Origin: an uncultured Sutterellaceae bacterium
Lineage (GTDB): Bacteria > Pseudomonadota > Gammaproteobacteria > Burkholderiales > Burkholderiaceae_F
Reading direction: 5' to 3'
Assembly: GCA_902797695.1 (NCBI GenBank)
Contig: CADBTW010000095.1
Location: 66-64,065, forward strand
DNA length: 64,000 nucleotides
The notes under the pieces were generated by a model. That model worked only from the letters and a program-made list of their open reading frames with translations, made no database searches and had not been told where the DNA came from. The translations under genes and the position numbers were made by a program. Below, piece after piece: positions 13,923-62,858 of the stretch; position 1 is the first letter of the stretch, and each line of letters starts with the position of its first letter.

Positions 13923-15251
13923 CTACTTGGCGGCGGTCTCCGAGAGCGCCTGGCGCACGGCCTTTGCGGCCGTGGCGTTGAAGCGGTACTGGAAGTCCGT
14001 GATCGGCAGGTTCGCCTTCAGGTAGTAGCCGGGGACGACGCTCGTCGTCTTGCCGCGCTTCATTTCGACAAGCGCGATGGAGAGGGCGTTCCGCGAGAGT
14101 TCGAAGATGCCGGTGTCAGGCGCCTTGACATCGACCGGGAACTCGACCGCGAGGCCCTTCGTGCCGTCCACCGTGCGGATGGTGTAGTTGCCGTTCGCGA
14201 CCGGGGTCTTAGACGTGCTCTGGCAGAAGACGGTGCCGGTCTTCACGGGGAGGAGGCTCACCTTGCCGGTGTTCCCGGGGGCGGCGCTCGAGGCCGTGGT
14301 CGTCACCGGGACCTTGACCTTATAGGTCTGCTTCACCTTCTTGCCCTTCTTGTTCTTCACGTACCGCGTCTTCGTCACGTACTTGTACGTGGTCTTCGCA
14401 TTCGCTGCAGCGCCGGACTGGGCGCCATCGAACGTGATTCCGTAGGCCTTGAAGCCCTCGCGCGGGAGGTAGCTGAGGCAATAGGGAATGCTGCCGCTGA
14501 AGTTCCTCGCGAAGCCTTCCACGGAGCCCGCGCCCGTGAAGGCGTTCGGCTTCAGCACGACGTACTCGTCCTGCACGGCGGAGATCTGGGGCATGTAGGC
14601 GACGGATCCCTTCGGGAAGACCGCGTTCGTGGTTCCGGCGGTCTGGGTCGGATAGTTGTTCCGGGTGCGGAGGTAGTGGAAGACGTGCTGCCCCGAGACG
14701 TCGAAGGCATAGAGCTTAACGCGGAGGGTGACCGGGGTCGCGGAAGAGTCGGAGTAGAGCTTCACGGAGCCGTCAGCCTCGGTGGTAAGGGTGCGCGGGA
14801 AGTCGGCCGATACGGAAACGCCGTTCCTCACGATCGACTCGACGTTCGTGCCCCAGGCGAAGCCATGTGCCTTTTGCCCTTCAGGGTACGTTTCCTTCAC
14901 CGTGTAGGAGTTGTCGCCGGTCTTTTCGCCGATCCGGAAATTCGATTCCTCGCGGTCGTTGAAGTAGTAGACCCCCTCGCCCTTGAACGCGTCGAGCGTC
15001 GTCATGCTGATCGGCTTCGCCCCCTTCACCACGGGGACCTTCGAAAGCATGAAGCCATATGTGCCGTCGCCGAAGCGGTCGGCGGACGGAGCCTCGGCCT
15101 TGACGGATTCCGCGGAGGCCTGGGAAGCTGCGGCAGAGGCGTCGCTCGCCTTGGAGGGGCTGGTTTCACAGCCGGCGAGGGCGGCCGCGAGGAGAACGGC
15201 AACGGCGGCGGATGCCGTGCGCCGGAAAGAGGGGAAACGGGAAGTAGTCAT
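13923..15251 (-). CDS. hypothetical lipoprotein (no family recognised)
   Basis: Signal peptide plus lipobox MTTSRFPSFRRTASAAVAVLLAAALAGC, and a normal globular composition afterwards. The opposite-strand ORF 13917..15257 is Arg/Leu/Gly-rich junk. ATG 15266 is an alternative start. Confidence 0.75.
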   Translation of the reverse strand: MTTSRFPSFRRTASAAVAVLLAAALAGCETSPSKASDASAAASQASAESVKAEAPSADRFGDGTYGFMLSKVPVVKGAKPISMTTLDAFKGEGVYYFNDREESNFRIGEKTGDNSYTVKETYPEGQKAHGFAWGTNVESIVRNGVSVSADFPRTLTTEADGSVKLYSDSSATPVTLRVKLYAFDVSGQHVFHYLRTRNNYPTQTAGTTNAVFPKGSVAYMPQISAVQDEYVVLKPNAFTGAGSVEGFARNFSGSIPYCLSYLPREGFKAYGITFDGAQSGAAANAKTTYKYVTKTRYVKNKKGKKVKQTYKVKVPVTTTASSAAPGNTGKVSLLPVKTGTVFCQSTSKTPVANGNYTIRTVDGTKGLAVEFPVDVKAPDTGIFELSRNALSIALVEMKRGKTTSVVPGYYLKANLPITDFQYRFNATAAKAVRQALSETAAK

Positions 15252-17078: not shown

Positions 17079-17306
17079 TCAGCCGCGGGCGGCGGAAGAC
17101 TCGGCAGCCTTCTGCTTCAGCCTGAGGCTTTCCAGCTCTTCCTCCGTCATCTTCCGGGCGTCGTGGACGATCATGTCCGGAATGCCCTTCGTTACGGAGA
17201 AGGCAAGCCCGCAGGACGGGCAGAGGAGTTCGGAAGCTTCCGCTCCCCAGGACAGACTGCCCTTGCACACCGGGCAGACCAGGTTCTTCGTCAGGTTGGA
17301 ATCCAT
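17079..17306 (-). CDS. Trm112/YcaR (UPF0434) family zinc-ribbon protein
   Basis: MDSNLTKNLVCPVCKGSLSW...LLCPSCGLAFSVTKGIPDMI. TGATG stop/start overlap with lpxK, in the conserved lpxK-ycaR-kdsB position. Confidence 0.85.
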   Translation of the reverse strand: MDSNLTKNLVCPVCKGSLSWGAEASELLCPSCGLAFSVTKGIPDMIVHDARKMTEEELESLRLKQKAAESSAARG

Positions 17307-18415
17307 CAGGGCTTTCCTTTTTCCATTCTGCTCTTCACGCGGCGGGCCTTCTGGTCCACGAGCTCCAGCAGATAGTCCTCGATCACGATGTCGTAGCCGG
17401 CCACCCATATTCTCGGGTCTGAGGCGATTTCCCGTATCTGGCGGCACTTCACTGCATCCTTTTCCGTAATGAGGATGCAGTCGGCGTCCAGGTCCTTGAA
17501 CGGGTTCGATTCGAAGCTGAAGTGATCGCCAAGCTCGAGGGTCTTTTCGCAGATGAATCCCCGCGCGCGCAGCATTGCGAAGAACCGGGTCGGAACTGCT
17601 ATGCCGGCCGCCGCAGCGAAAGTCTTTCCCTCAAGCTGGCCGCGGAGCGCTTCCAGTGTGAGCTCCTTGCCGGTCGAGAGCTGCGTGCAGCGCCCGAGAG
17701 TCGAGCTCGCGGCGAAGCGCGGAGTCCGTGTCTCGAGAATCGCGCTGGTCGCGTTCAGGACGATGGCGTCCACCGAGTCGAGCCTCGAAGGCGGTTCCCG
17801 GAGCGGGCCGGCGGGGAGCACCCAGCCGTTCCCGATCCCGTGCGCTCCGATCACGCAAAGCTCCACGTCCCTGCGGAGAGCGTAGTGCTGGAGCCCGTCG
17901 TCTGAAATGATGATGTCGATTTCAGGAGAAGACTTTAGGAGCAGCCGTCCCGCTTCGACACGGTCGCGGCCGACCGCGACCGGGAGCCCTGTCTTGCGGG
18001 CGATGAGGAGCGGTTCGTCGCCGCTCGATGAGGAGTCGGTGTTCGGGCCGACAAGCTTCACGCCGTCCGCCTTCCGCCCGTAGCCCCGGGAAATGACCCC
18101 GGGGTGCCAGCCCATTTTCCTCAGGCCCCGGGCGAGCGCAATCGTGACGGGAGTCTTTCCCGTTCCTCCGACATAGATGTTCCCTACGACGACAACCGGA
18201 ACGGGAAGCCGTTCAGGCTGTGCGTGCATCGCGCGATACCGCGACACGCAGAGGAACACGAATGAGAAGGGGGAGAGGAGCAGCGCGAAGAGTCCCTTTT
18301 TCGCCCACTGCCTGTGAAGCAGCATCTCAAGGCCTGCGCGAAACGTCGCGGGACGGTGCTGCGGTTGGGCCGGAGGAGTCCGGTCGGAGGTTGATCGAGG
18401 TCGGTCTGATTCCAT
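17306..18415 (-). CDS. lpxK: tetraacyldisaccharide 4'-kinase
   Basis: P-loop PVPVVVVGNIYVGGTGKTPV and VISRGYGRK. The start is uncertain: ATG 18415 was chosen, with 18325 and 18445 as alternatives. Confidence 0.9.
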   Translation of the reverse strand: MESDRPRSTSDRTPPAQPQHRPATFRAGLEMLLHRQWAKKGLFALLLSPFSFVFLCVSRYRAMHAQPERLPVPVVVVGNIYVGGTGKTPVTIALARGLRKMGWHPGVISRGYGRKADGVKLVGPNTDSSSSGDEPLLIARKTGLPVAVGRDRVEAGRLLLKSSPEIDIIISDDGLQHYALRRDVELCVIGAHGIGNGWVLPAGPLREPPSRLDSVDAIVLNATSAILETRTPRFAASSTLGRCTQLSTGKELTLEALRGQLEGKTFAAAAGIAVPTRFFAMLRARGFICEKTLELGDHFSFESNPFKDLDADCILITEKDAVKCRQIREIASDPRIWVAGYDIVIEDYLLELVDQKARRVKSRMEKGKP

Positions 18416-18592
18416 GTGAATGGGAAAATGCCCGGTGCCGGGCATGATGCCACTTGAAGTAGAGAGCCCTAATGATAATGGCAATGGAATCGCGCTGCTC
18501 ACCGGGAGCGGACTGCCTGCTGGGACAAGCCTCCTGTGGAAAAACGGTTTGCATTTGAAGCAATCGATTGATTTTGAATTATTTCTTGGATT

Positions 18593-18601
18593 TGTGGATA
18601 A
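18593..18601 (+). promoter_or_regulatory. perfect DnaA box TGTGGATAA
   Basis: Exact reverse complement of TTATCCACA. The position was verified against the reading frame of ORF 18420..18737. Confidence 0.5.
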
Positions 18602-19186
18602 TTTTTCGCCAGAAGAAAAGCCTTTCGATTTCATCAAGTTGCCGCTGATAACCGTCTTATGGGATGGGCATTCGGGATGGTGGGCCCGGGGCGGGGTTCC
18701 GGCCTGCGTCCCCGTTCTTTTCTGGCCAAGACTTTAGAACTGACCCAACATGATGATTTCCCGAATATTTCCGCAAATTTCCCTGAAGATCGGCGCGAAA
18801 GAGGCCTGTGGACAAAAAATTCCGCAATTTGTCAGATAATTAGCCGCTTTATCACGGAACAGGTGAATAGGGATGTTCACACACGCTGAGCAACTCGGTT
18901 ATTTTCTTGAAACACAAGGGAAAACTCACGTTGCCTAATTTTTAGGCAACAGAGTAATTTCCTTTTCATTCATTATGTTGCATCACTCGCGGAAACCGAT
19001 GCCCTGTTGATTTGCAGCCCGTTTTACGGCATCCGGGATATTCACAGAACCGAAGGGGAATCCCCTTTCGAATATAACTGCGGTGAATCGCCGTGTTTTT
19101 CCTTTTTGCTTATGGCATTACAGGGACAAAAAAGGAATGACGATCAACTGATGATCCTCGGCAGAGGAAGATCTGGGGAAAAATCC

Positions 19187-19217
19187 TGTGGATAACTGTG
19201 TGAACAAATGTGGAGAA
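19187..19217 (+). promoter_or_regulatory. triple DnaA-box cluster
   Basis: TGTGGATAA (19187-19195, perfect), TGTGAACAA (19199-19207) and TGTGGAGAA (19209-19217), head-to-tail within 31 bp. Confidence 0.5.
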
Positions 19218-19460
19218 AAGGGATAAGTCGCTGAAGAATAGAAACTTTTTGCCAGCGGCTTTTTTCCAGAGTTTTAAAATAAAAACAAATAAAATCAAAG
19301 AATTGCAAATAATTTATTGAACTTACGGAAGGTTTCTCCCTCGGAATTCCGGGTCTTTGCCTCTCCTGCGGCACTCCGGGGCTGCCGGTGGAAAAGTTTT
19401 CGCTTCAGGGCTTTCTTCCAAACGGTGCAGAATAGCAAAGTGGGCTCGAAAGGAGATCTC

Positions 19461-21146
19461 ATGCCTCGCGATTTCGACTTTGACTTCTTTGGCGGCAACG
19501 CTTCGGGCCGGACGGCGCCTCTCCGGCCCTCTAGGGCGCCGTCCCTCAGGAGCGCGTGGCCGGAACGGGATCGGCCGGAGGGCGGAGCCCGGGCTCCTGG
19601 CAGCGTGCCCGCGTCCGGGGGGGAAAGGATGCTTTCCGTGAGCGACGTCTGCCGCTCGATCAGCCTCTCGCTCAAAGGGCGGTTCCCGAGGATCTGGGTT
19701 GAAGGGGAGGTCGCCGGGGTCACCGTGCCGTCGAGCGGCCACTGCTACTTCGAACTGAAGGACGAAAGCGCCCAGATTTCCTGCGTGATGTTCCGTTCGG
19801 AACTCGCCCAGTACGGATTTCGCCCGGAGCCGGGCGACCGCGTCGAGGTGCTCGCCCAGCCAACGCTATATGAAAGAAAGGGGCGGCTGCAGCTCTCTGT
19901 CCACGAAATGCGGCGCGCCGGCCTCGGGAGGCTCTACGCCGAGTTCCTCCGCCTTCAGAGGAAGCTTTCCGACGAGGGGCTTTTCAGCGCCGAGCTGAAG
20001 CGGCCGCTTCCGGCGCTTCCCCGTACGGTGGGCGTGGTGACGAGCCTTCAGGCCGCGGGCCTCCGGGATGTTCTCCGGACGCTTGAGAAGAGGGCGCCGT
20101 ATGCGCGCGTCGTGATCTTCCCTGCTTCCGTTCAGGGCTCCCGGGCCCCGCAGGAGCTCGTCCAGGCCCTGAGGCGTGCGTCTTCATCCGGGGTGCCGGA
20201 CGTCGTCCTTCTCGTTCGCGGCGGCGGATCCTACGAGGACCTCGCCTGCTTCAACAGCGAAGCGCTCGCGCGGGAAATCCGGCGCTCCCAGGTCCCGGTT
20301 GTGACCGGAATCGGACACGAGTCCGACACGACGATCGCGGACCTCGCGGCTGACCTCCGGGCGGCGACCCCGACCGCGGCGGCCGAGCAGTGCGCGCCTG
20401 CCGCTACCGAGGTCACGGCGCGGATCGAGCGGCGGGAACTCGCGCTGAAAAGAGCGTACGAGAGGCTGCACGCGGAGCGGTCCCAGAGGCTGGACCTCGC
20501 GGAGAGCAGCCTCCGCTCGCCGCTTTCGCTCATCCGGGAGGGCCGGTCGCGTGCGTCAGATGCGACCGGACGCCTCGCGCGGATCGCAGACCGTGCGTTC
20601 CTTATTGAGTCAGGCCGTCTTCAGGGGCTCGAGTCGAGGACCCTGTCCTTCAGGAAGAGGATCACGGAGGGCGCGGGAGACTCGATCCGGGCGAAAGTCC
20701 TCGCGATGGGACGCGCCGCGAGGGACATTTCCGGAGCTGAACGGGGGAAGTTCGGCAGCCTTTCGATCAGGCTCCGGCACGAAGGGGAAGGGATACTGAG
20801 GGACCGGGGTTCGCGGCTCGCGCTTGAGGAGAAGGCGCTCGAAGGGGCGAAGCCCGCGGTCGGTGCCGGCCGGGCGGCGGTTCTCGCGGCCGAGCAGGAG
20901 CTCTCCAGGACTGCCCGGGCGGCGATCCTCCGGGAACGCTCCCGGATGGGGGAAGCGGAAGCGCGGCTTCGCTCGATGGAACTCGCCCGCGTGCTTCGCC
21001 GGGGATTCGCGCTCGTTCTCCGGGCAGGCGGAATCCCGGTTTCCCGGGCGGGGGAGCTCCACGCGGGTGACGACCTCAGCCTGATGCTTTCCGACGGCCG
21101 GGCCGAGGTTAGGGTGCTTTCAGTGGAGGCCGGGAAGGAGGCCTAG
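19461..21146 (+). CDS. xseA: exodeoxyribonuclease VII large subunit
   Basis: OB-fold N-terminus (RIWVEGEVAGVTVPSSGHCYFELKD) and core motifs VGVVTS, LVRGGGSYEDL, GIGHESD. ATG 19461 follows AAGGAG; ATG 19629 is an alternative start. Confidence 0.92.
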   Translation: MPRDFDFDFFGGNASGRTAPLRPSRAPSLRSAWPERDRPEGGARAPGSVPASGGERMLSVSDVCRSISLSLKGRFPRIWVEGEVAGVTVPSSGHCYFELKDESAQISCVMFRSELAQYGFRPEPGDRVEVLAQPTLYERKGRLQLSVHEMRRAGLGRLYAEFLRLQRKLSDEGLFSAELKRPLPALPRTVGVVTSLQAAGLRDVLRTLEKRAPYARVVIFPASVQGSRAPQELVQALRRASSSGVPDVVLLVRGGGSYEDLACFNSEALAREIRRSQVPVVTGIGHESDTTIADLAADLRAATPTAAAEQCAPAATEVTARIERRELALKRAYERLHAERSQRLDLAESSLRSPLSLIREGRSRASDATGRLARIADRAFLIESGRLQGLESRTLSFRKRITEGAGDSIRAKVLAMGRAARDISGAERGKFGSLSIRLRHEGEGILRDRGSRLALEEKALEGAKPAVGAGRAAVLAAEQELSRTARAAILRERSRMGEAEARLRSMELARVLRRGFALVLRAGGIPVSRAGELHAGDDLSLMLSDGRAEVRVLSVEAGKEA

Positions 21147-32869: not shown

Positions 32870-32968
32870 GTCGAGGAAAGGAGCGTTCTTTCAAGCCGGA
32901 CGAAAAAGAGCTCCATTATAGAAAGAGCGGGGGAACGGTGCTCCCCTCTCTCGGCTAGAATGGGCGCC

Positions 32969-34027
32969 ATGCTGATACTTGGTATTGAATCCTCCTGCGA
33001 CGAGACGGGAGCCGCGCTCATCGATTCCGATAAGGGGCTTCTCGCCCACCGGATCCACACGCAGATTGACATGCACCGCGCCTACGGGGGCGTGGTCCCG
33101 GAGCTCGCGAGCCGCGACCACATCCGGCGCGTCCTCGCCCTCACGGACGAAGTGCTTGAGGAAGCGGGGAAGACCCGCTCCGACCTTGGCGCGATCGCGG
33201 TGACCGAAGGGCCGGGGCTCGCCGGCGCGCTTCTTGTCGGAGTGTCCGTCGCGCACGCGATCGGCTATGCGCTCGGGATCCCCGTGATCGGCGTGCACCA
33301 CCTCGAGGGGCACCTGCTCGCCTCGCTGCTCGCCGACCCCGCGCCGAAGTTCCCCTTTGTCGCGCTCCTCGTTTCCGGAGGCCACACCCAGTTCATGAAG
33401 GTGAAGCGCTTCGGGAGCTACGAGCTCCTCGGCGAGACGCTTGACGACGCGGCGGGCGAAGCCTTCGACAAGACGGCGCAGCTTCTCGGCATGTGCTACC
33501 CGGGCGGCCCCGGCGTTTCCGCGCTCGCGGAGAAGGGAACCCCTGGCGCGATCGAGCTTCCCCGTCCGATGATGCATTCCCCGGACCTCAACATGAGCTT
33601 CTCGGGGCTCAAGACCGCCGTGCTCAACGCCGTGATGAAGGCCGAGAACCCTGAGGATCCCGTTTTCCGGGCGAACCTCGCGCGGGCCTTCGTCGATGCG
33701 GTGACAGATGTCCTCGCCGCGAAGGCCGTGCGGGCCCTGAAGAAGACCCGCATGCATTCCCTCGTCGTCGCGGGCGGCGTGAGCGCGAACAAGCAGCTCC
33801 GGGCCCGGCTCACGCTTGAAGTGGAGAAGCGGCACGGGAAGATCTTCTTCCCCCCGATTTCGCTCTGCACCGACAACGGCGCCATGATCGCGATCGCGGG
33901 CCTGAAGCGGCTGCAGTCGATGACGCCTGAGCAGCTCGAGAGTTGCCGCCACCGCTGGTCCTTCACGGCGAAGCCCCGCTGGACCCTCGAGCAGGCGGCG
34001 AACCCCGACGGGCTTCCCCGGGCCTGA
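32969..34027 (+). CDS. tsaD: tRNA N6-adenosine threonylcarbamoyltransferase TsaD
   Basis: [28 protein letters not shown]. The ORF-track extension from 32288 is antisense to ribF and is rejected. ATG 32960 is an alternative start. Confidence 0.95.
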
Positions 34028-34062
34028 AGGTTCCGCCCGGTCCTCATCGGAAAAATGAACTA

Positions 34063-34102
34063 ACCCGTGCGGCCGGTCTTCCGGCGCACGGGTTTTCTTT
34101 TT
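34063..34102 (+). terminator. intrinsic terminator after tsaD
   Basis: Long stem ACCCGTGCGGCCGG/CCGGCGCACGGGT followed by TTTCTTTTT. Confidence 0.65.
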
Positions 34103-34602
34103 CAGTACCACCAGCGGGCCGGGGGCGAGGATTCGAGCGCCCGGAGCTTCCGGAACGCTTCTCCGAGGAGCGGGTCCCCGGGCGTGAAGAGGATCCGGTG
34201 CAGCGGGATGAGGGGGAAGAGCGGAACCCGAAGGGCAATGTTCCCGGCTTCCGCTTCGTCCTGAGAAACCCCGGGAAGGCTGCGAAGGGGAACCCCGCTT
34301 CCGCAGGAGATCGAGCACGCGGCGCGGCAAAGGGCCTCGGAATCCTCTGGGAGTCCAAACCGGCCGAGGAGGGGAAGCCAGGCCCGCGGATCGAGCTCGT
34401 ACGGGTCGTCAAGGTAGGCGCGGAGCGCGGCGAGCGCCCGGGACGCTTCGGACTCCGGGGGCGGAAGGACACCGGGGGATCTGGTTTCCTCCGCCCTTTC
34501 CACGCGCATCCCCTTCAGCTCTCCCGAACGAGCGAACCGGACGACGAACCGGAGCCCGTCCCACGAGGCTGCCGCCTCGGGTTCGGGGTCCCTCTCAGCC
34601 AT
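34102..34602 (-). CDS. hypothetical protein, alkyltransferase (MGMT/ATL)-like by eye
   Basis: 166-aa ORF overlapping the ispH stop by 8 nt. The C-terminal stretch [39 protein letters not shown] resembles the NP..iPCHRV..G...K..LL.E motif, with Leu in place of Cys. Confidence 0.5.
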
Positions 34603-41636: not shown

Positions 41637-42005
41637 TACTCGTGAATATGGGAATTGTCAAGGGTCTTGTGCTATCATTTTGACCGATTGAGCCTGCAGG
41701 AAGCCTAGTTCAGCTTCCGCGCAGGGACGGCCAGGAGACGCCTTTATGTCGGAGCCGTCGGTTGATACCTTGACTTACCAGGCTGTACCTGGTGCGGTGC
41801 GCAGATCCCTCGGAGAGCGTAAGGGCTCCCGGAAGCGAAAGATCGCCGTCATATGCGGCAGCGCCGCCGGATGCCTGGATGCAGGGGCGTCTGCGAGCCG
41901 GACAAGGCTGTCCGGTCCGCATCTCGTGCCAGGGCACCTCCCCCGGGTTTCAGCCCGCGTGCGGAGGGCCGTCCCTTTGCGCCCTCGGAAAGAATTGGAA
42001 TTGAA

Positions 42006-44213
<2,208 letters not shown>

Positions 44214-44461
44214 GGTTCCTCGGTTTGTCAATCAGGGTTAGGAGGGTGAGGGTTGTGCCCACAGCCTTCCGTGCTTAGATTAAGCTCTCCTAGCCTGACC
44301 GCTGGAGTCTCTTCTCGGAAGGGATCCGAATTTTCTAGTTCCTCGCGGCAGCTGCTCCGCCGGGCCGTCTTCCCTCTTGTGGGATGAGGCCCCGGACCGC
44401 AAAGCGCGCGCCGCCCGGAATCCCCGGGCTTCCAGTAAAGGCCGGGGAACGTAAATGCTGG

Positions 44462-46702
44462 ATGTTTCAATTGGCTAAGCGACAAGAAAACACTGAAGAA
44501 TTGACTGCTGCCGAAGGGCCTGCCGCCGGAAAGACCGCCGCCAAGGCGGCCCCGGCGAAGAAAGCCCCGGCCCGCCGCAAGGCCGCGCCGAAGAAGGCCT
44601 CAGAAGCCCCGGCCCGCAGCAAGCCTGCCGCGAAGAAGGCCGCGGCGAAGCCGAAGGCCGCACCGAAGCCAAAGGCGGCATCGAAGACAAAGGCCGCGCC
44701 GAAGCCCAAGGCTGCTGCGAAGCCGAAGAAGGCGGCCGCAGGGGCTTCTTCCGAAGCCGAGGAGTTCGATGACGGCTCCGTACTTGATGCCGACAGCCTG
44801 ATCGCCGAGTCTGATCAGGACCTTGAGGACGACGAGGAGAACGAGTTTGAGGAAGCCGAGAAGAGCGCTTCCCAGGCCAGTTCCGGCCTTGCCTCGTCCG
44901 AGGAGTTCACGCAGTGCTACAAGGCCCTCGTCAAGCTCGGCCGCCAGCGCGGCTGGATTTCGGTCGAGGACATCAATGACCTGCTGCCTGAGAGCGCGGA
45001 CTCGAACGAGGAGCTGGTTTCCGACATTTCCGAGCAGATCGCGATCCTTGGCATCCAGGTGTTCGACCAGGCGCCGGACAGCGACGACATCATCCTCGCC
45101 TCCGTCACGAACGACAGCCGCGACGACATCGACGAGGACGACGCGGCAGAGATGCTCTCCCCGGAGGAGAGCGCCGGCCTTTCCCGCGATCCCCTCCGGG
45201 CGTACCTGCGCGGGGTCGGAACCCACAAGCTCCTCACGCGCGAGGAGGAGATCGAAGTCGCGAAGCAGATCGAGTCCTACACCCAGAAGCTCGTCTCGGT
45301 GCTCGCCGGCTTCCCCTTCGTGATGGACAAGCTCCTCGAGGTCCGCAGGCAGCTCGAGGAAGGCGAGGTGACGATTGACAACGTCGCCGACGGCTTCAAC
45401 GAGGCCGAGGGCGAAGCGGTGTCCGTCGAAGAGGGCCAGGGCGGGGGCGACATCGGCGCCGCCGGCATGAGCACGGACCAGCTCGAGGCGATGAAGAGCC
45501 GCGTGATCTCGATCATCAGCGAGTGCGAGGGGCACTACGCCCTCGTGAAGCAGTATTTCCCCGATCCGGAGCAGCACACGGCATACAACCGCGAAAGGCG
45601 CTCCGTCGTGAAGAAGCTCTCCGTGATCCGCTTCTCCGGCAAGATCGTCTCCATGCTTTCCGACCTCGTCACCGAGCACATGTCCCAGGTGAACAAGCAG
45701 CTGTCGCGCATGCGCCGCACGGCCGTGGACGACTGCGGGATTCCGGTCGAGAAGTTCCTGAAGGAGTTCGAGCAGCGGGCGACCGATCCCGAGTGGTTCC
45801 CGTCGATCGCCGCGGAAGGCGCCGCGTACTCCGCGCGCGTCCAGCGCCAGATCCCGGTCCTGCAGTCGATGCAGGAGGAGCTACGGGCCGAGGAGCGCGA
45901 GTCGAGCATCACGATCGCCGAGCAGCGCGAGCTCGCGAAGTCCGTGAAGATCGCGCAGAACAACCTTTCCGCCGCGAAGAGCAAGATGATCGAGGCGAAC
46001 CTGCGGCTCGTGATCTCGATCGCGAAGTCCTACGTGAACCGCGGCCTCGCGATGACCGACCTCATCCAGGAAGGAAACCTCGGCCTCATGAAGGCGGTCG
46101 ACAAGTTCGAATACCGCCGCGGCTACAAGTTCTCTACCTACGCGACCTGGTGGGTGAAGCAGTCGGTCACCCGGGCGGTGGCGGACTACGGCGCGACGAT
46201 TCGCGTCCCGGTCCACATGACCGAGTCCTACAACAAGCTTCGCCGCATCAAGCAGCGCTACCTCCAGACGCACGACGGGAAGGCGCCGACCGACTCCGAG
46301 CTCGCGAAGCTTGGCGACATGCCGCTCTCGAAGGTGCACCTCCTCATGAACGCGATGCGCGGCGTCGAGTCGATCGACGCCCCGATCGGGGACGACGACG
46401 ACGCGACGAAGCTCGACTTCGTGAGGGGGAGCGATGACGCGGACCCGCAGCGCCGCTACATGGAGACCGCGATGAGCGACGAGATCATCCGCTCGCTCGA
46501 CGACCTCACGGCGCGCGAGGCCTCCGTGATCCGCCTTCGCTACGGGATCGGCTCGAACCGCGACCACACGCTCGAGGAGGTCGGCAAGGCGCTCGGCCTC
46601 ACCCGCGAACGTGTCCGCCAGATCGAGTCCGCCGCGCTCCGCAAGCTCCGCAGCAACGCCGCCAAGGCAAGGCTGAAGGACTACAAGGATTTCGACGAGT
46701 AG
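44462..46702 (+). CDS. second full-length RpoD-like (group 1/2) sigma factor with Lys/Ala/Pro-rich N-terminal tail
   Basis: Region 1.1 (YKALVKLGRQRGWISVEDINDLLPE), region 1.2, a long non-conserved region, region 2 (YATWWVKQSVTRAVADYGATIRVPVHM) and region 4.2 (TLEEVGKALGLTRERVRQIESAALRKLR). About 80 aa of AKKA/KPKAA repeats lie in frame at the N-terminus. ATG 44384 is an alternative start. Confidence 0.9.
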   Translation: MFQLAKRQENTEELTAAEGPAAGKTAAKAAPAKKAPARRKAAPKKASEAPARSKPAAKKAAAKPKAAPKPKAASKTKAAPKPKAAAKPKKAAAGASSEAEEFDDGSVLDADSLIAESDQDLEDDEENEFEEAEKSASQASSGLASSEEFTQCYKALVKLGRQRGWISVEDINDLLPESADSNEELVSDISEQIAILGIQVFDQAPDSDDIILASVTNDSRDDIDEDDAAEMLSPEESAGLSRDPLRAYLRGVGTHKLLTREEEIEVAKQIESYTQKLVSVLAGFPFVMDKLLEVRRQLEEGEVTIDNVADGFNEAEGEAVSVEEGQGGGDIGAAGMSTDQLEAMKSRVISIISECEGHYALVKQYFPDPEQHTAYNRERRSVVKKLSVIRFSGKIVSMLSDLVTEHMSQVNKQLSRMRRTAVDDCGIPVEKFLKEFEQRATDPEWFPSIAAEGAAYSARVQRQIPVLQSMQEELRAEERESSITIAEQRELAKSVKIAQNNLSAAKSKMIEANLRLVISIAKSYVNRGLAMTDLIQEGNLGLMKAVDKFEYRRGYKFSTYATWWVKQSVTRAVADYGATIRVPVHMTESYNKLRRIKQRYLQTHDGKAPTDSELAKLGDMPLSKVHLLMNAMRGVESIDAPIGDDDDATKLDFVRGSDDADPQRRYMETAMSDEIIRSLDDLTAREASVIRLRYGIGSNRDHTLEEVGKALGLTRERVRQIESAALRKLRSNAAKARLKDYKDFDE

Positions 46703-60981: not shown

Positions 60982-61100
60982 GATGGAACCGGATTGTAGA
61001 CGAGGTGCGAGAAAAGGCCCCGGGCGAGGATGCCCGGAGCCCTTTGGAATTCGCTGCGAGAGCGTGGGGAGGGGTTCCCCACGCCCGGGTGCCCTCTTTC

Positions 61101-62480
61101 CTAGAACCGGTAGACGATCCCGGCGCCCACCATGTAGCAGTTCAGCTTCTTGTAGCGGCCGATCTTCTCGGAATCAGGAGAGGCGTAGAGGTCCCGGTTG
61201 CCGATCCCGTGGATGTGGGTCGCCGCGAGGTCGAACTGCCAGTGCTCGTCGAAGCGGTAGGTCGCACCAAGCGTCGCCCAGACACGGTTCGCGTCAGGGA
61301 TCAGCGCCGTGCGGTAACGCGAGTTCCCGATAGGCGAGCGGTCGTAGGCGACGCCGCCGCGGATCGTCCACTTCGGCGTGATGTCGAGGTCGTAGCCGAG
61401 CGAGAAGAACCACGAGTCGCGCCACTTCATCGGCACGTCGGTTTCGCTGTGCGGGAGGGAACCCGCGTTGATGATCAGCTTGTCGAAGCTGCTCCAGTCG
61501 GTCCAGCGGACAGAGCCGGAGAGCCGGAGCTTCGGAGAATACTTCCAGACCCAGGAGACGTGCGCGGAAGCGGGCGAATCCATCTGGGCGCCACCGTCCA
61601 GGGTGATGCTCCCTCCCTGCGCGAGCGACATCATGTCTGCGGCGGAGACCCCGAGCTGCTGCATCGCGGCAACCATCCTTGCCGCCATCTGCGGGTTAGA
61701 GCGCGCTGCGGCGGCCGCGGCGGCCGCGGTCTTGCTGCCCTTTTCGTCAGTCGAGAACTTCACATTCCCGTGCGCCTTGTGGGTGAAGGAGCCGCGATAG
61801 CCGAAGCCGAGCCGGAAGGAGTCGGTGGGAGACCACATGGCGCCAACATTCCAGCCGTAGCCCCAGTCGGTCGCGTCGTTGAGTCTCGTGTAGACGTTCT
61901 GCCCGAGCATCGAGCGCTTCATCGAAACCGTTGCGTCGATGTATTGCGCCGTGAACCCCGCGCCGAGCGAAACCTTTTCGTTCAGCTTCCAGCCGATCGA
62001 GGGGTTGATCGCGATCGTCATGAGGCGGGCGTCATAGCCGCGCGCCGCGCCTTCCCAGTCCTTGTCGTAAGAGTCGGAAAGCCCGAAGGGCATGATGACG
62101 GCGAGCCCGCCCCAGATATTGTCCGAGAACTGGTGGGTGATGTACTCGTGAAGGATCGGGGATGTGCGCTTGCGGCCGTTCTCGGTCGCGCCGCTCTTCC
62201 CCTCGTAGTCGATGTCGAGGTTGTTCGTGTAGCCCCCGAGCTGAATTTGCGTCCCGGGAAGCAGCGTGAGGCCGGCGGGGTTGTACCAGGCGGCCGACAG
62301 GTCGTCGCCCATGATGCCCTGGCCCGCATAGGCGCGGCCGAGGCCCGTGACAGACTGCTCGTTCAGCTGGAAGCCGCCCGCGAGCGCTTCCCCGGAGAGC
62401 GAGAGAATGGAGGCTGCGACGGCAGCCGCTGCAACTTTTTTCCTGATCGTCATTTTCGCTTGGATTGCTTTCCGGCTCAC
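61101..62480 (-). CDS. fadL: FadL/TodX family outer-membrane hydrophobic-compound transporter
   Basis: Signal peptide then AGGFQLNEQSVTGLGRAYAGQG, beta-barrel composition and a C-terminal ...GAGIVYRF. ATG 62453 is an alternative start. Confidence 0.9.
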   Translation of the reverse strand: MSRKAIQAKMTIRKKVAAAAVAASILSLSGEALAGGFQLNEQSVTGLGRAYAGQGIMGDDLSAAWYNPAGLTLLPGTQIQLGGYTNNLDIDYEGKSGATENGRKRTSPILHEYITHQFSDNIWGGLAVIMPFGLSDSYDKDWEGAARGYDARLMTIAINPSIGWKLNEKVSLGAGFTAQYIDATVSMKRSMLGQNVYTRLNDATDWGYGWNVGAMWSPTDSFRLGFGYRGSFTHKAHGNVKFSTDEKGSKTAAAAAAAARSNPQMAARMVAAMQQLGVSAADMMSLAQGGSITLDGGAQMDSPASAHVSWVWKYSPKLRLSGSVRWTDWSSFDKLIINAGSLPHSETDVPMKWRDSWFFSLGYDLDITPKWTIRGGVAYDRSPIGNSRYRTALIPDANRVWATLGATYRFDEHWQFDLAATHIHGIGNRDLYASPDSEKIGRYKKLNCYMVGAGIVYRF

Positions 62481-62858
62481 CCTGGCTTGCGGCTGGCGAA
62501 CCTTTGCTTGTTCTGTTTGAGAGGAATGTGCTTTTTTGGGAAAGCCGGGCCAGTGCGTGCTTTTTTTGGCTTTTCGGCTTTCCCTACCGAAAACCGGGGC
62601 TATTCTATGGAGCGTCGCGCGAGTCGGTCCATGCGGGTTTTTTAAGGGTAAACCCTTTAGTTAAGAAAAAAACAAGGACCGATTTTGCGAAGATTAATCG
62701 TAACAATTTGATTTAAAAAGAATTTAATTTCTATTTTTCTAGACTTTGCTGACCGGCGAAATGAGCGACTTGCGGGCATCCGCTCCATAGCCTATCCGGG
62801 CTAATCCGCGGAGTGACGCAAAGCTTCCCGCCCGGAAAGCAGGAAGAAGAAGGGACAA

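Follow-up and report, generated by a model that had tools for sequence, protein, structure and literature searches.

A conserved array of DnaA boxes upstream of xseA in a gut Sutterellaceae bacterium: a candidate DnaA control locus with a DARS-like relative across the Burkholderiales

In the genome of an uncultured Sutterellaceae bacterium (GenBank assembly GCA_902797695.1), the divergent genes lpxK and xseA are separated by about 1 kb of gene-free, AT-rich DNA that carries an array of binding boxes for the replication initiator DnaA. The stretch analyzed, here called the window, comprises 64,000 nt of contig CADBTW010000095.1 (forward strand, positions 66 to 64,065), and coordinates below are those of the window unless a locus is named. 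DARS (DnaA-reactivating sequence) and datA are non-coding loci by which the cycling of DnaA between its ATP and ADP forms is set, and to our knowledge they have so far been characterized only in Escherichia coli. Our favored reading of the lpxK-xseA spacer, to which the sequence comparisons lead us to give about an even chance, is that it is a DnaA control locus separate from the replication origin, and that it descends, in the Sutterellaceae, from a module resembling DARS2 that precedes xseA throughout the Burkholderiales.

A first-pass annotation of the window had described the spacer as laid out like an origin, and had named as equally live a datA- or DARS-type locus or DnaA control of xseA and lpxK. 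The latter group of readings is supported, in that the xseA-proximal boxes are orthologous to a conserved module resembling a DARS core. The origin fares poorly, as set out below.

The module upstream of xseA in the Burkholderiales

Scanning genomes with LpxK yielded 80 loci, most of them from Burkholderiales. In most loci xseA lies divergently upstream of exbB-exbD-lpxK, and perfect DnaA boxes (TGTGGATAA) accumulate in the xseA-exbB spacer in a constant orientation relative to the genes. The boxes were sought as units of fixed spacing, in which an inverted box I is followed after 5 bp by box II and after a further 3 bp by box III. In 41 of 79 loci this detector found 145 units, every one of them in the xseA spacer and on the same strand, and it found none in five shuffles of 894 kb; applied to E. 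coli, it returned exactly the DARS1 and DARS2 cores. Over 144 units the consensus is TTctgCACA, 5 nt, TGTGGAtAA, 3 nt, TGTGnGcAA. The layout is the same as that of the two E. coli cores, which read in MG1655 TTATCCACT-attcc-TGTGGATAA-cca-TGTGTATTA (DARS1) and TTATTCACC-ttttc-TGTGGATAG-agt-TGTGAAGAA (DARS2). In DARS, boxes I and II are opposed across a 5-bp gap and both are essential, and box II of DARS1 has the full consensus. The association with xseA spans dozens of Burkholderiales genera, the exact core geometry being present there in dozens of genera that include some of Rhodocyclales type. As found across the family, the module probably represents a new DARS-class element. A scan of metagenomes with XseA, which served as a negative control, gave only distant homologs, with neither a neighboring lpxK nor box pairs.

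The module is multiplied in the Oxalobacteraceae (Janthinobacterium, Massilia, Pseudoduganella, Rugamonas, Undibacterium), where 5-8 units stand in series at intervals of 120-200 bp. All copies in these arrays point one way, and the cores alone are conserved: they are 83% identical, as against 52% for the DNA between units, and Tandem Repeats Finder (TRF) reported no repeat in the Janthinobacterium array. Such serial multiplication of DnaA sites is hard to explain by promoter control alone. Serial arrays in the xseA-exbB spacer were recorded in L020 (3600-4750) and in L009, L010, L012, L014, L022, L024, L027, L030, L031, L038, L042, L044 and L048.

Downstream of the core, the module continues with cAAAGTGCTTGATTc, whose inverted copy, ttTAAAATCAAgcACTTA, lies about 65 nt beyond it and fits the E. 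coli consensus for integration host factor (IHF), WATCAANNNNTTR, at about +125 from box II. For comparison, the IHF sites of E. coli DARS2 (IBS1-2) are overlapped by a PciI site (ACATGT), and from the position of that site we estimate that they lie at about +105 from box II. A 12-nt inverted repeat, AAGTGCTTGATT/AATCAAGCACTT, with arms about 65 nt apart, was noted at +45 to +140 from box II in L008, L039, L028, L061 and others; its arms could be two opposed IHF-type sites or the stem of a structured leader.

The lpxK-xseA spacer of the window and its relatives

The window's stretch from box II to an IHF-like site (19187-19305, within a stretch of about 150 bp) aligns with the xseA-upstream module of other Burkholderiales. 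Box II is orthologous to box II of the module, and the ctg spacer and box III follow in the same places; ATAAGTCGCTGAAG stands for AAAGTGCTTGATT, and AATCAAAGAATTG, as an IHF-consensus site, is orthologous to the conserved ttTAAAATCAAgcACTTA. Compared with the module, the clade has gained a direct box, III′. At the place where relatives carry inverted box I, the window has a weak box in the direct orientation (19174), and the inverted box is absent from that position in all six lineages compared. What remains is head-to-tail throughout: the weak box, boxes II, III and III′, 75 bp, the IHF-like site, 81 bp, and a further box at 19387.

The six lineages are the window and five related lineages of Sutterellaceae type (L120, which is Dakarella massiliensis, and L122-L125), found via XseA homologs. 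Their XseA proteins are just 41-46% identical to that of the window. All six share the gene order adk-kdsB-ycaR-lpxK, spacer, xseA-DUF192-csp-clpS-clpA-dut, and the five relatives keep a gene-free spacer of 0.82-1.15 kb with 39-49% GC, against 55-66% for the locus. The clade is without exbB-exbD, in whose place it has AT-rich DNA bearing box a and a palindrome, and no exbB/exbD remnant was found in the window's spacer. Contigs from gut metagenomes carry an XseA identical to that of the window. Within the species collection, the genome closest to the window's is L007 (3380-3760), a metagenome-assembled genome of a Burkholderiaceae bacterium from cattle cecum, with an LpxK 61% identical.

The annotation of a 1-kb AT-rich gap with no credible open reading frame (ORF) is correct, and a hidden gene was rejected: in a peptide comparison across lineages, no ORF or peptide was conserved in one consistent frame, and the matches fall in several frames over the same DNA, which places the conservation at the nucleotide level. 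A search of the spacer against Rfam gave no family at the gathering threshold and, at the E-value threshold, a sole noise-level match to NsiR4 (E = 0.69); TRF found no tandem repeats there except short A-tract repeats.

The boxes are far too many for chance. Five sites in the spacer, each on the plus strand, differ from TGTGGATAA by one mismatch at most, against 0.18 expected, and none of 2000 dinucleotide-preserving shuffles of the spacer itself reached five. The relaxed consensus TGTGNAWAA is matched by eight sites on the plus strand and two on the minus strand, with about one expected per strand (0 of 1000 shuffles match this), so that the plus strand is strongly enriched and the minus strand is at chance. 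Five of the seven boxes with at most one mismatch in the entire 64 kb fall in the spacer, and the double box formed by 19187 and 19199, 274 bp upstream of the xseA start, is the only head-to-tail pair in the window with a gap of 2-3 bp. The six boxes listed in the first-pass annotation are correct in coordinates and sequence, all on the plus strand, with the last three within 31 bp. Its remark that three of them vary only at the degenerate position was mistaken: these boxes vary at position 7 of TGTGGATAA, which corresponds to the W of TTWTNCACA and not to the N, and only TGTGGAAAA among the three fits the relaxed consensus, TGTGGACAA and TGTGGAGAA being one-mismatch boxes.

Phylogenetic footprinting was based on an alignment of the six spacers, with a mean column identity of 54%, and was scored per 9-mer. 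Box II ranks first, followed by the palindrome at 18931-18949, box a and box III (Table 1); one conserved box or box pair lies near each divergent gene, box a by lpxK and boxes II and III by xseA. Four of the six lineages have a further box in the same direction, 74-126 bp ahead of xseA; the window's 19387 box corresponds to TGTGCAGAA (L120, L122) and TGTGAAAAA (L125), sited at -115 to -126 relative to xseA. The 58-bp pair of boxes a and b is present also in Dakarella.

In the mechanism we propose, DnaA would dock on the perfect box II, which is likely to be the nucleating high-affinity site, and would spread head-to-tail onto boxes III and III′, with the weak box at 19174 perhaps included. 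A bend of IHF type at 19293-19305 could then bring in the downstream box at 19387, and box a, 650 bp off and beside lpxK, would provide a second conserved DnaA site. In E. coli, inverted box I makes the head-to-head contact needed for release of ADP from DnaA. Because the clade has lost this box, the locus is predicted to hold DnaA as a head-to-tail oligomer, and thus to be a datA-like sink or inactivator, or a titration site, rather than a reactivator. The sequence comparisons show the boxes with their single orientation, their conservation and their orthology to the module, and show no origin signatures; binding of DnaA and IHF at the spacer, as well as an effect on the nucleotide state of DnaA, are what we infer.

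Several observations weigh against this reading. (i) Positions 19173-19181 read CTGGGGAAA, there is no inverted box I, and the detector finds zero units in the window, which therefore lacks a defining feature of DARS despite its DARS-type descent. (ii) Box b is not clade-wide, and box c is lineage-specific. (iii) The IHF and Fis sites were assigned by E. coli consensus only. (iv) The order of elements along the direction of the boxes is the reverse of that in datA. (v) In L007 the lpxK-xseA gap is just about 270 bp and has zero DnaA boxes, so that at least one neighboring lineage has lost the element. (vi) In E. coli, a plain promoter under DnaA control likewise has the look of a double DnaA box ahead of a DNA-repair gene.

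The spacer holds conserved elements other than boxes. Its two matches to the IHF consensus compare with 0.06 expected, and the very AT-rich tract that follows the box cluster, which had been pointed out in the annotation and is indeed 23% GC (19255-19325), is conserved chiefly at the IHF-like motif. The palindrome changes among lineages in ways that preserve its symmetry (GCCTAA, GCTTAA, GATTAA). All six versions fit a loose 15-mer Fis consensus, one that is expected about once per kb by chance. The palindrome may equally be an operator for a dimeric protein or a weak hairpin; an intrinsic terminator is unlikely, the L120 stem being almost all A-T with a T-run that begins 5-9 nt past the stem.

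Table 1. Features of the lpxK-xseA spacer and its flanking genes. Identity is that of the six-lineage alignment; IHF sites are predicted.
Feature	Sequence	Coordinates	Strand	Remarks
lpxK		17306..18415	-	Heads the leftward lpxK-ycaR-kdsB-adk cluster; Pfam LpxK on the identical gene in L001
lpxK-xseA spacer		18416..19460	.	Gene-free, AT-rich; 1045 bp, 46% GC vs about 65% for the window
Box a	TGTGGAAAA	18535..18543	+	lpxK-proximal; fits TGTGNAWAA; in 5 of 6 lineages; identity 0.87; top 1% of spacer 9-mers
IHF-consensus match	AATCAATCGATTG	18561..18573	-	Between boxes a and b; identity 0.58, moderately conserved
Box b (perfect)	TGTGGATAA	18593..18601	+	58 bp from box a; identity 0.52
Box c	TGTGGACAA	18807..18815	+	Column identity 0.52
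Palindrome	TTGCCTAATTTTTAGGCAA	18931..18949	.	Second most conserved spacer block; 0.83-0.91 across six lineages
Weak direct box	TGGGGAAAA	19174..19182	+	4 bp upstream of box II; identity 0.43, not conserved
Box II (perfect)	TGTGGATAA	19187..19195	+	Identity 0.93; top 9-mer of the whole spacer across six lineages
Box III	TGTGAACAA	19199..19207	+	3 bp (ctg) after box II; identity 0.85; top 1% of 9-mers
Box III′	TGTGGAGAA	19209..19217	+	1 bp after box III; in window, L120 and L122; identity 0.69
Conserved block	ATAAGTCGCTGAAG	19223..19236	+	Identity 0.76; counterpart of cAAAGTGCTTGATTc in other Burkholderiales
Very AT-rich tract		19255..19325	.	23% GC; A-tracts phased at 10 bp
IHF-consensus match	AATCAAAGAATTG	19293..19305	+	+106 from box II; column identity 0.76
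Downstream box-like site	GGTGGAAAA	19387..19395	+	Same direction as the boxes; 81 bp after the IHF-like site
xseA		19461..21146	+	Exonuclease VII large subunit; start 19461, or 19629 per NCBI

The right-hand border of the spacer depends on the start of XseA, which is given as 561 aa from 19461 in the collection used here and as 505 aa from 19629 by NCBI. The first 56 residues of the longer form are of low complexity, rich in Pro, Arg, Ala and Gly; with the later NCBI start, this means that the spacer may really be about 1.2 kb. The XseA proteins of the relatives are also unusually long, at 538-611 aa.

Elsewhere in the window, a 442-aa ORF between dus and adk (13923-15251, minus strand) has no Pfam match, and its position and size (423-442 aa) are conserved in all related lineages. 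Directly after dnaG lie two adjacent, full-length sigma-70 genes of RpoD type (41853-44213 and 44384-46702); each comprises regions 1.1 to 4 together with the non-essential region, which indicates a duplication of rpoD. Two other long ORFs, at 32891-34330 (minus strand, 479 aa) and 61005-62645 (plus strand, 546 aa), match no Pfam family at E <= 1e-5, and may be either spurious, lying opposite real genes, or uncharacterized proteins.

Other readings of the spacer

The closest rival, a real if lesser possibility, is that the spacer is a plain DnaA operator, in which the boxes at 19187-19217 activate or repress xseA and box a does likewise for the lpxK operon, with DnaA activity itself unaffected. 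If so, a DNA-repair nuclease and envelope synthesis would be tied to the status of replication. The DnaA sites known in vivo in E. coli are nearly all head-to-tail double boxes 2-3 bp apart, and promoters of genes for replication, repair or nucleotides account for most of them, the one at polA being nearly identical to that of the window; the window retains head-to-tail boxes only; and the conserved boxes lie one by each divergent gene. The constancy with which the module accompanies xseA from genus to genus also fits an operator, and DARS1 of E. coli itself lies in the region upstream of uvrB. The last fact means that an operator and a control locus are compatible, and the two readings are not exclusive. 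Our preference for a control locus over a mere operator comes from three features that an operator leaves unexplained: the clade keeps a 1-kb AT-rich spacer where 150-300 bp would suffice, most relatives have the exact DARS geometry with inverted box I, and the Oxalobacteraceae have multiplied the unit. Moreover, no promoter could be placed convincingly beside the boxes: a promoter consensus scan of the spacer gave two weak matches unrelated to the conserved blocks, and in relatives none was convincingly placed for xseA.

It is a good deal less probable that the spacer is a working DARS that dispenses with the inverted box. Here a U-turn made by IHF would fold same-direction boxes into head-to-head DnaA contact, and the candidate sets would be box a, IHF site and box b, or the triple box, IHF site and the 19387 box. 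The descent from a DARS-type module is in keeping with this idea, as is the location of the IHF-consensus sites exactly between same-direction boxes, and IHF is essential for DARS2 in E. coli. The opposed boxes I and II, 5 bp apart, are however essential in E. coli, no DARS of a loop type is known, and the 18561 site and box b of the first candidate set are poorly conserved.

That the spacer is the chromosomal oriC, with boxes that recruit DnaA and the tract at 19255-19325 as the unwinding element, is very improbable. The resemblance is genuine, since a bacterial oriC likewise combines same-direction DnaA boxes with an IHF-like site and a tract of high AT content beside them; in the window these lie in a gene-free gap between divergent genes. 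In addition, an origin in Burkholderiales need not adjoin dnaA. Against an origin here, those published for Burkholderiales are situated close to dnaA or parAB, or else some 90 kb away from dnaA. Unlike an origin, the site has no switch in GC skew: the skew is +0.047 to the left of the spacer and +0.027 to the right, the cumulative skew climbs across all 64 kb without a minimum, and the five lineages with the same gene order have positive skew on both flanks (0.04-0.11). The operon rimP-nusA-infB-rbfA-truB-typA-dus, on the plus strand to the left, points into the spacer and so would be head-on to forks leaving it, a conflict that the annotation had itself raised. Its further statement that the window has no dnaA agrees with our checks, which found none among the large ORFs or with approximate DnaA query peptides; nor does the window have conserved 13-mer repeats or origin-linked genes.

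Two origin-like details in the annotation were in part upheld. Its three GATC sites are real (19142, 19153, 19170), but such sites are no commoner in the spacer than chance would have it (5 observed, 3.95 expected) and are not conserved, and control through GATC, Dam and SeqA was rejected on these grounds. The trio-like run GAAGAATAGAAA is present, but beyond CTGAAG it is not conserved (0.62) and by reading it fits no single trio frame; a DnaA-trio was likewise rejected. The orthologous site in relatives consists of DARS-type units with inverted box pairs, L007 is without the element, and in three closed relatives the orthologous spacer stands at varied coordinates (1.6 of 7.3 Mb, 2.3 of 7.4 Mb and 1.9 of 4.4 Mb), which is suggestive only. 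Counts of FtsK-orienting polar sequences (KOPS; GGGNAGGG), with 2 on the plus and 3 on the minus strand to the left and 11 and 6 to the right, are too few to decide polarity. Origin finders that work by box density may take arrays of the module, those of the Oxalobacteraceae among them, for oriC.

Comparison with known DnaA-binding loci

In the full-text literature compared, to which the original 2009 DARS paper did not belong, no DARS- or datA-like loci are described for the Burkholderiales, nor is the xseA spacer. Papers on DARS describe its core as conserved only in gammaproteobacteria related to E. coli; one review says "beta- or gamma-" without detail. A more far-reaching proposal, which we consider rather doubtful, is that the xseA module is a genuine Burkholderiales DARS, the first outside the close relatives of E. 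coli, with 5-8 active cores in the Oxalobacteraceae and rebuilt in gut Sutterellaceae as a datA-like array of direct boxes only. If this were true, one chromosomal site would have switched in evolution between reactivating and restraining the replication initiator. The natural variants of the module could also serve to mark replication control in Sutterellaceae of the gut that are uncultured.

Clusters of DnaA boxes outside oriC occur also in Bacillus subtilis and Streptomyces, where they reportedly restrain initiation. Those clusters belong to different phyla, involve no IHF and share no box geometry with the window. The operators of the E. coli DnaA regulon are closer. Those of polA, purH, nrdA and dnaA have, like the window, a head-to-tail pair with a 3-bp gap and one full-consensus box, upstream of a replication or repair gene, and the polA double box reads TGTGGATAA-ctt-TGTGCATAA on the opposite strand. 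They differ from the window, whose pair belongs to a 1-kb spacer that is itself conserved and has other conserved boxes, and derives from a module of three boxes that relatives have in multiple copies.

The likeness to datA is one of architecture. datA, the E. coli locus for titration of DnaA and hydrolysis of DnaA-ATP, is likewise a non-coding stretch of about 1 kb whose essential boxes all point in one direction, and it combines a strong-plus-weak double box, a single IHF site and a further box. The candidate equivalents in the window occupy about 209 bp, compared with 183 bp for the minimal datA, with arms of 75 and 81 bp as against 56 and 84 bp, in the reversed order mentioned above. datA follows glyVXY, and has no homology to the window in sequence or context.

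The closest parallels are with DARS1 and DARS2, which are likewise non-coding and away from oriC. Both share with the window a box II of full or nearly full consensus, followed at 3 bp by box III in the same direction; DARS1 has a degenerate box III′ of its own, as the window has its box III′; and DARS2 has an IHF site about 100 bp from the core, a distance similar to that of the window's predicted match. All three lie upstream of a repair gene, DARS1 of uvrB, DARS2 of mutH and the window's element of xseA. There are also clear differences. The inverted box I that E. coli requires is missing from the window's clade; DARS2 has a Fis site beyond its IHF site, whereas the Fis-like palindrome of the window lies 250 bp off, to the opposite side of the core; and beyond the boxes there is no sequence homology, the genomic contexts being different. 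The serial cores of the Oxalobacteraceae are unheard of in E. coli. Taken together with the single-copy module and the remodeled form that is without the inverted box, these arrays are natural variants of one layout, and they make the rules of head-to-head versus head-to-tail DnaA assembly directly testable.

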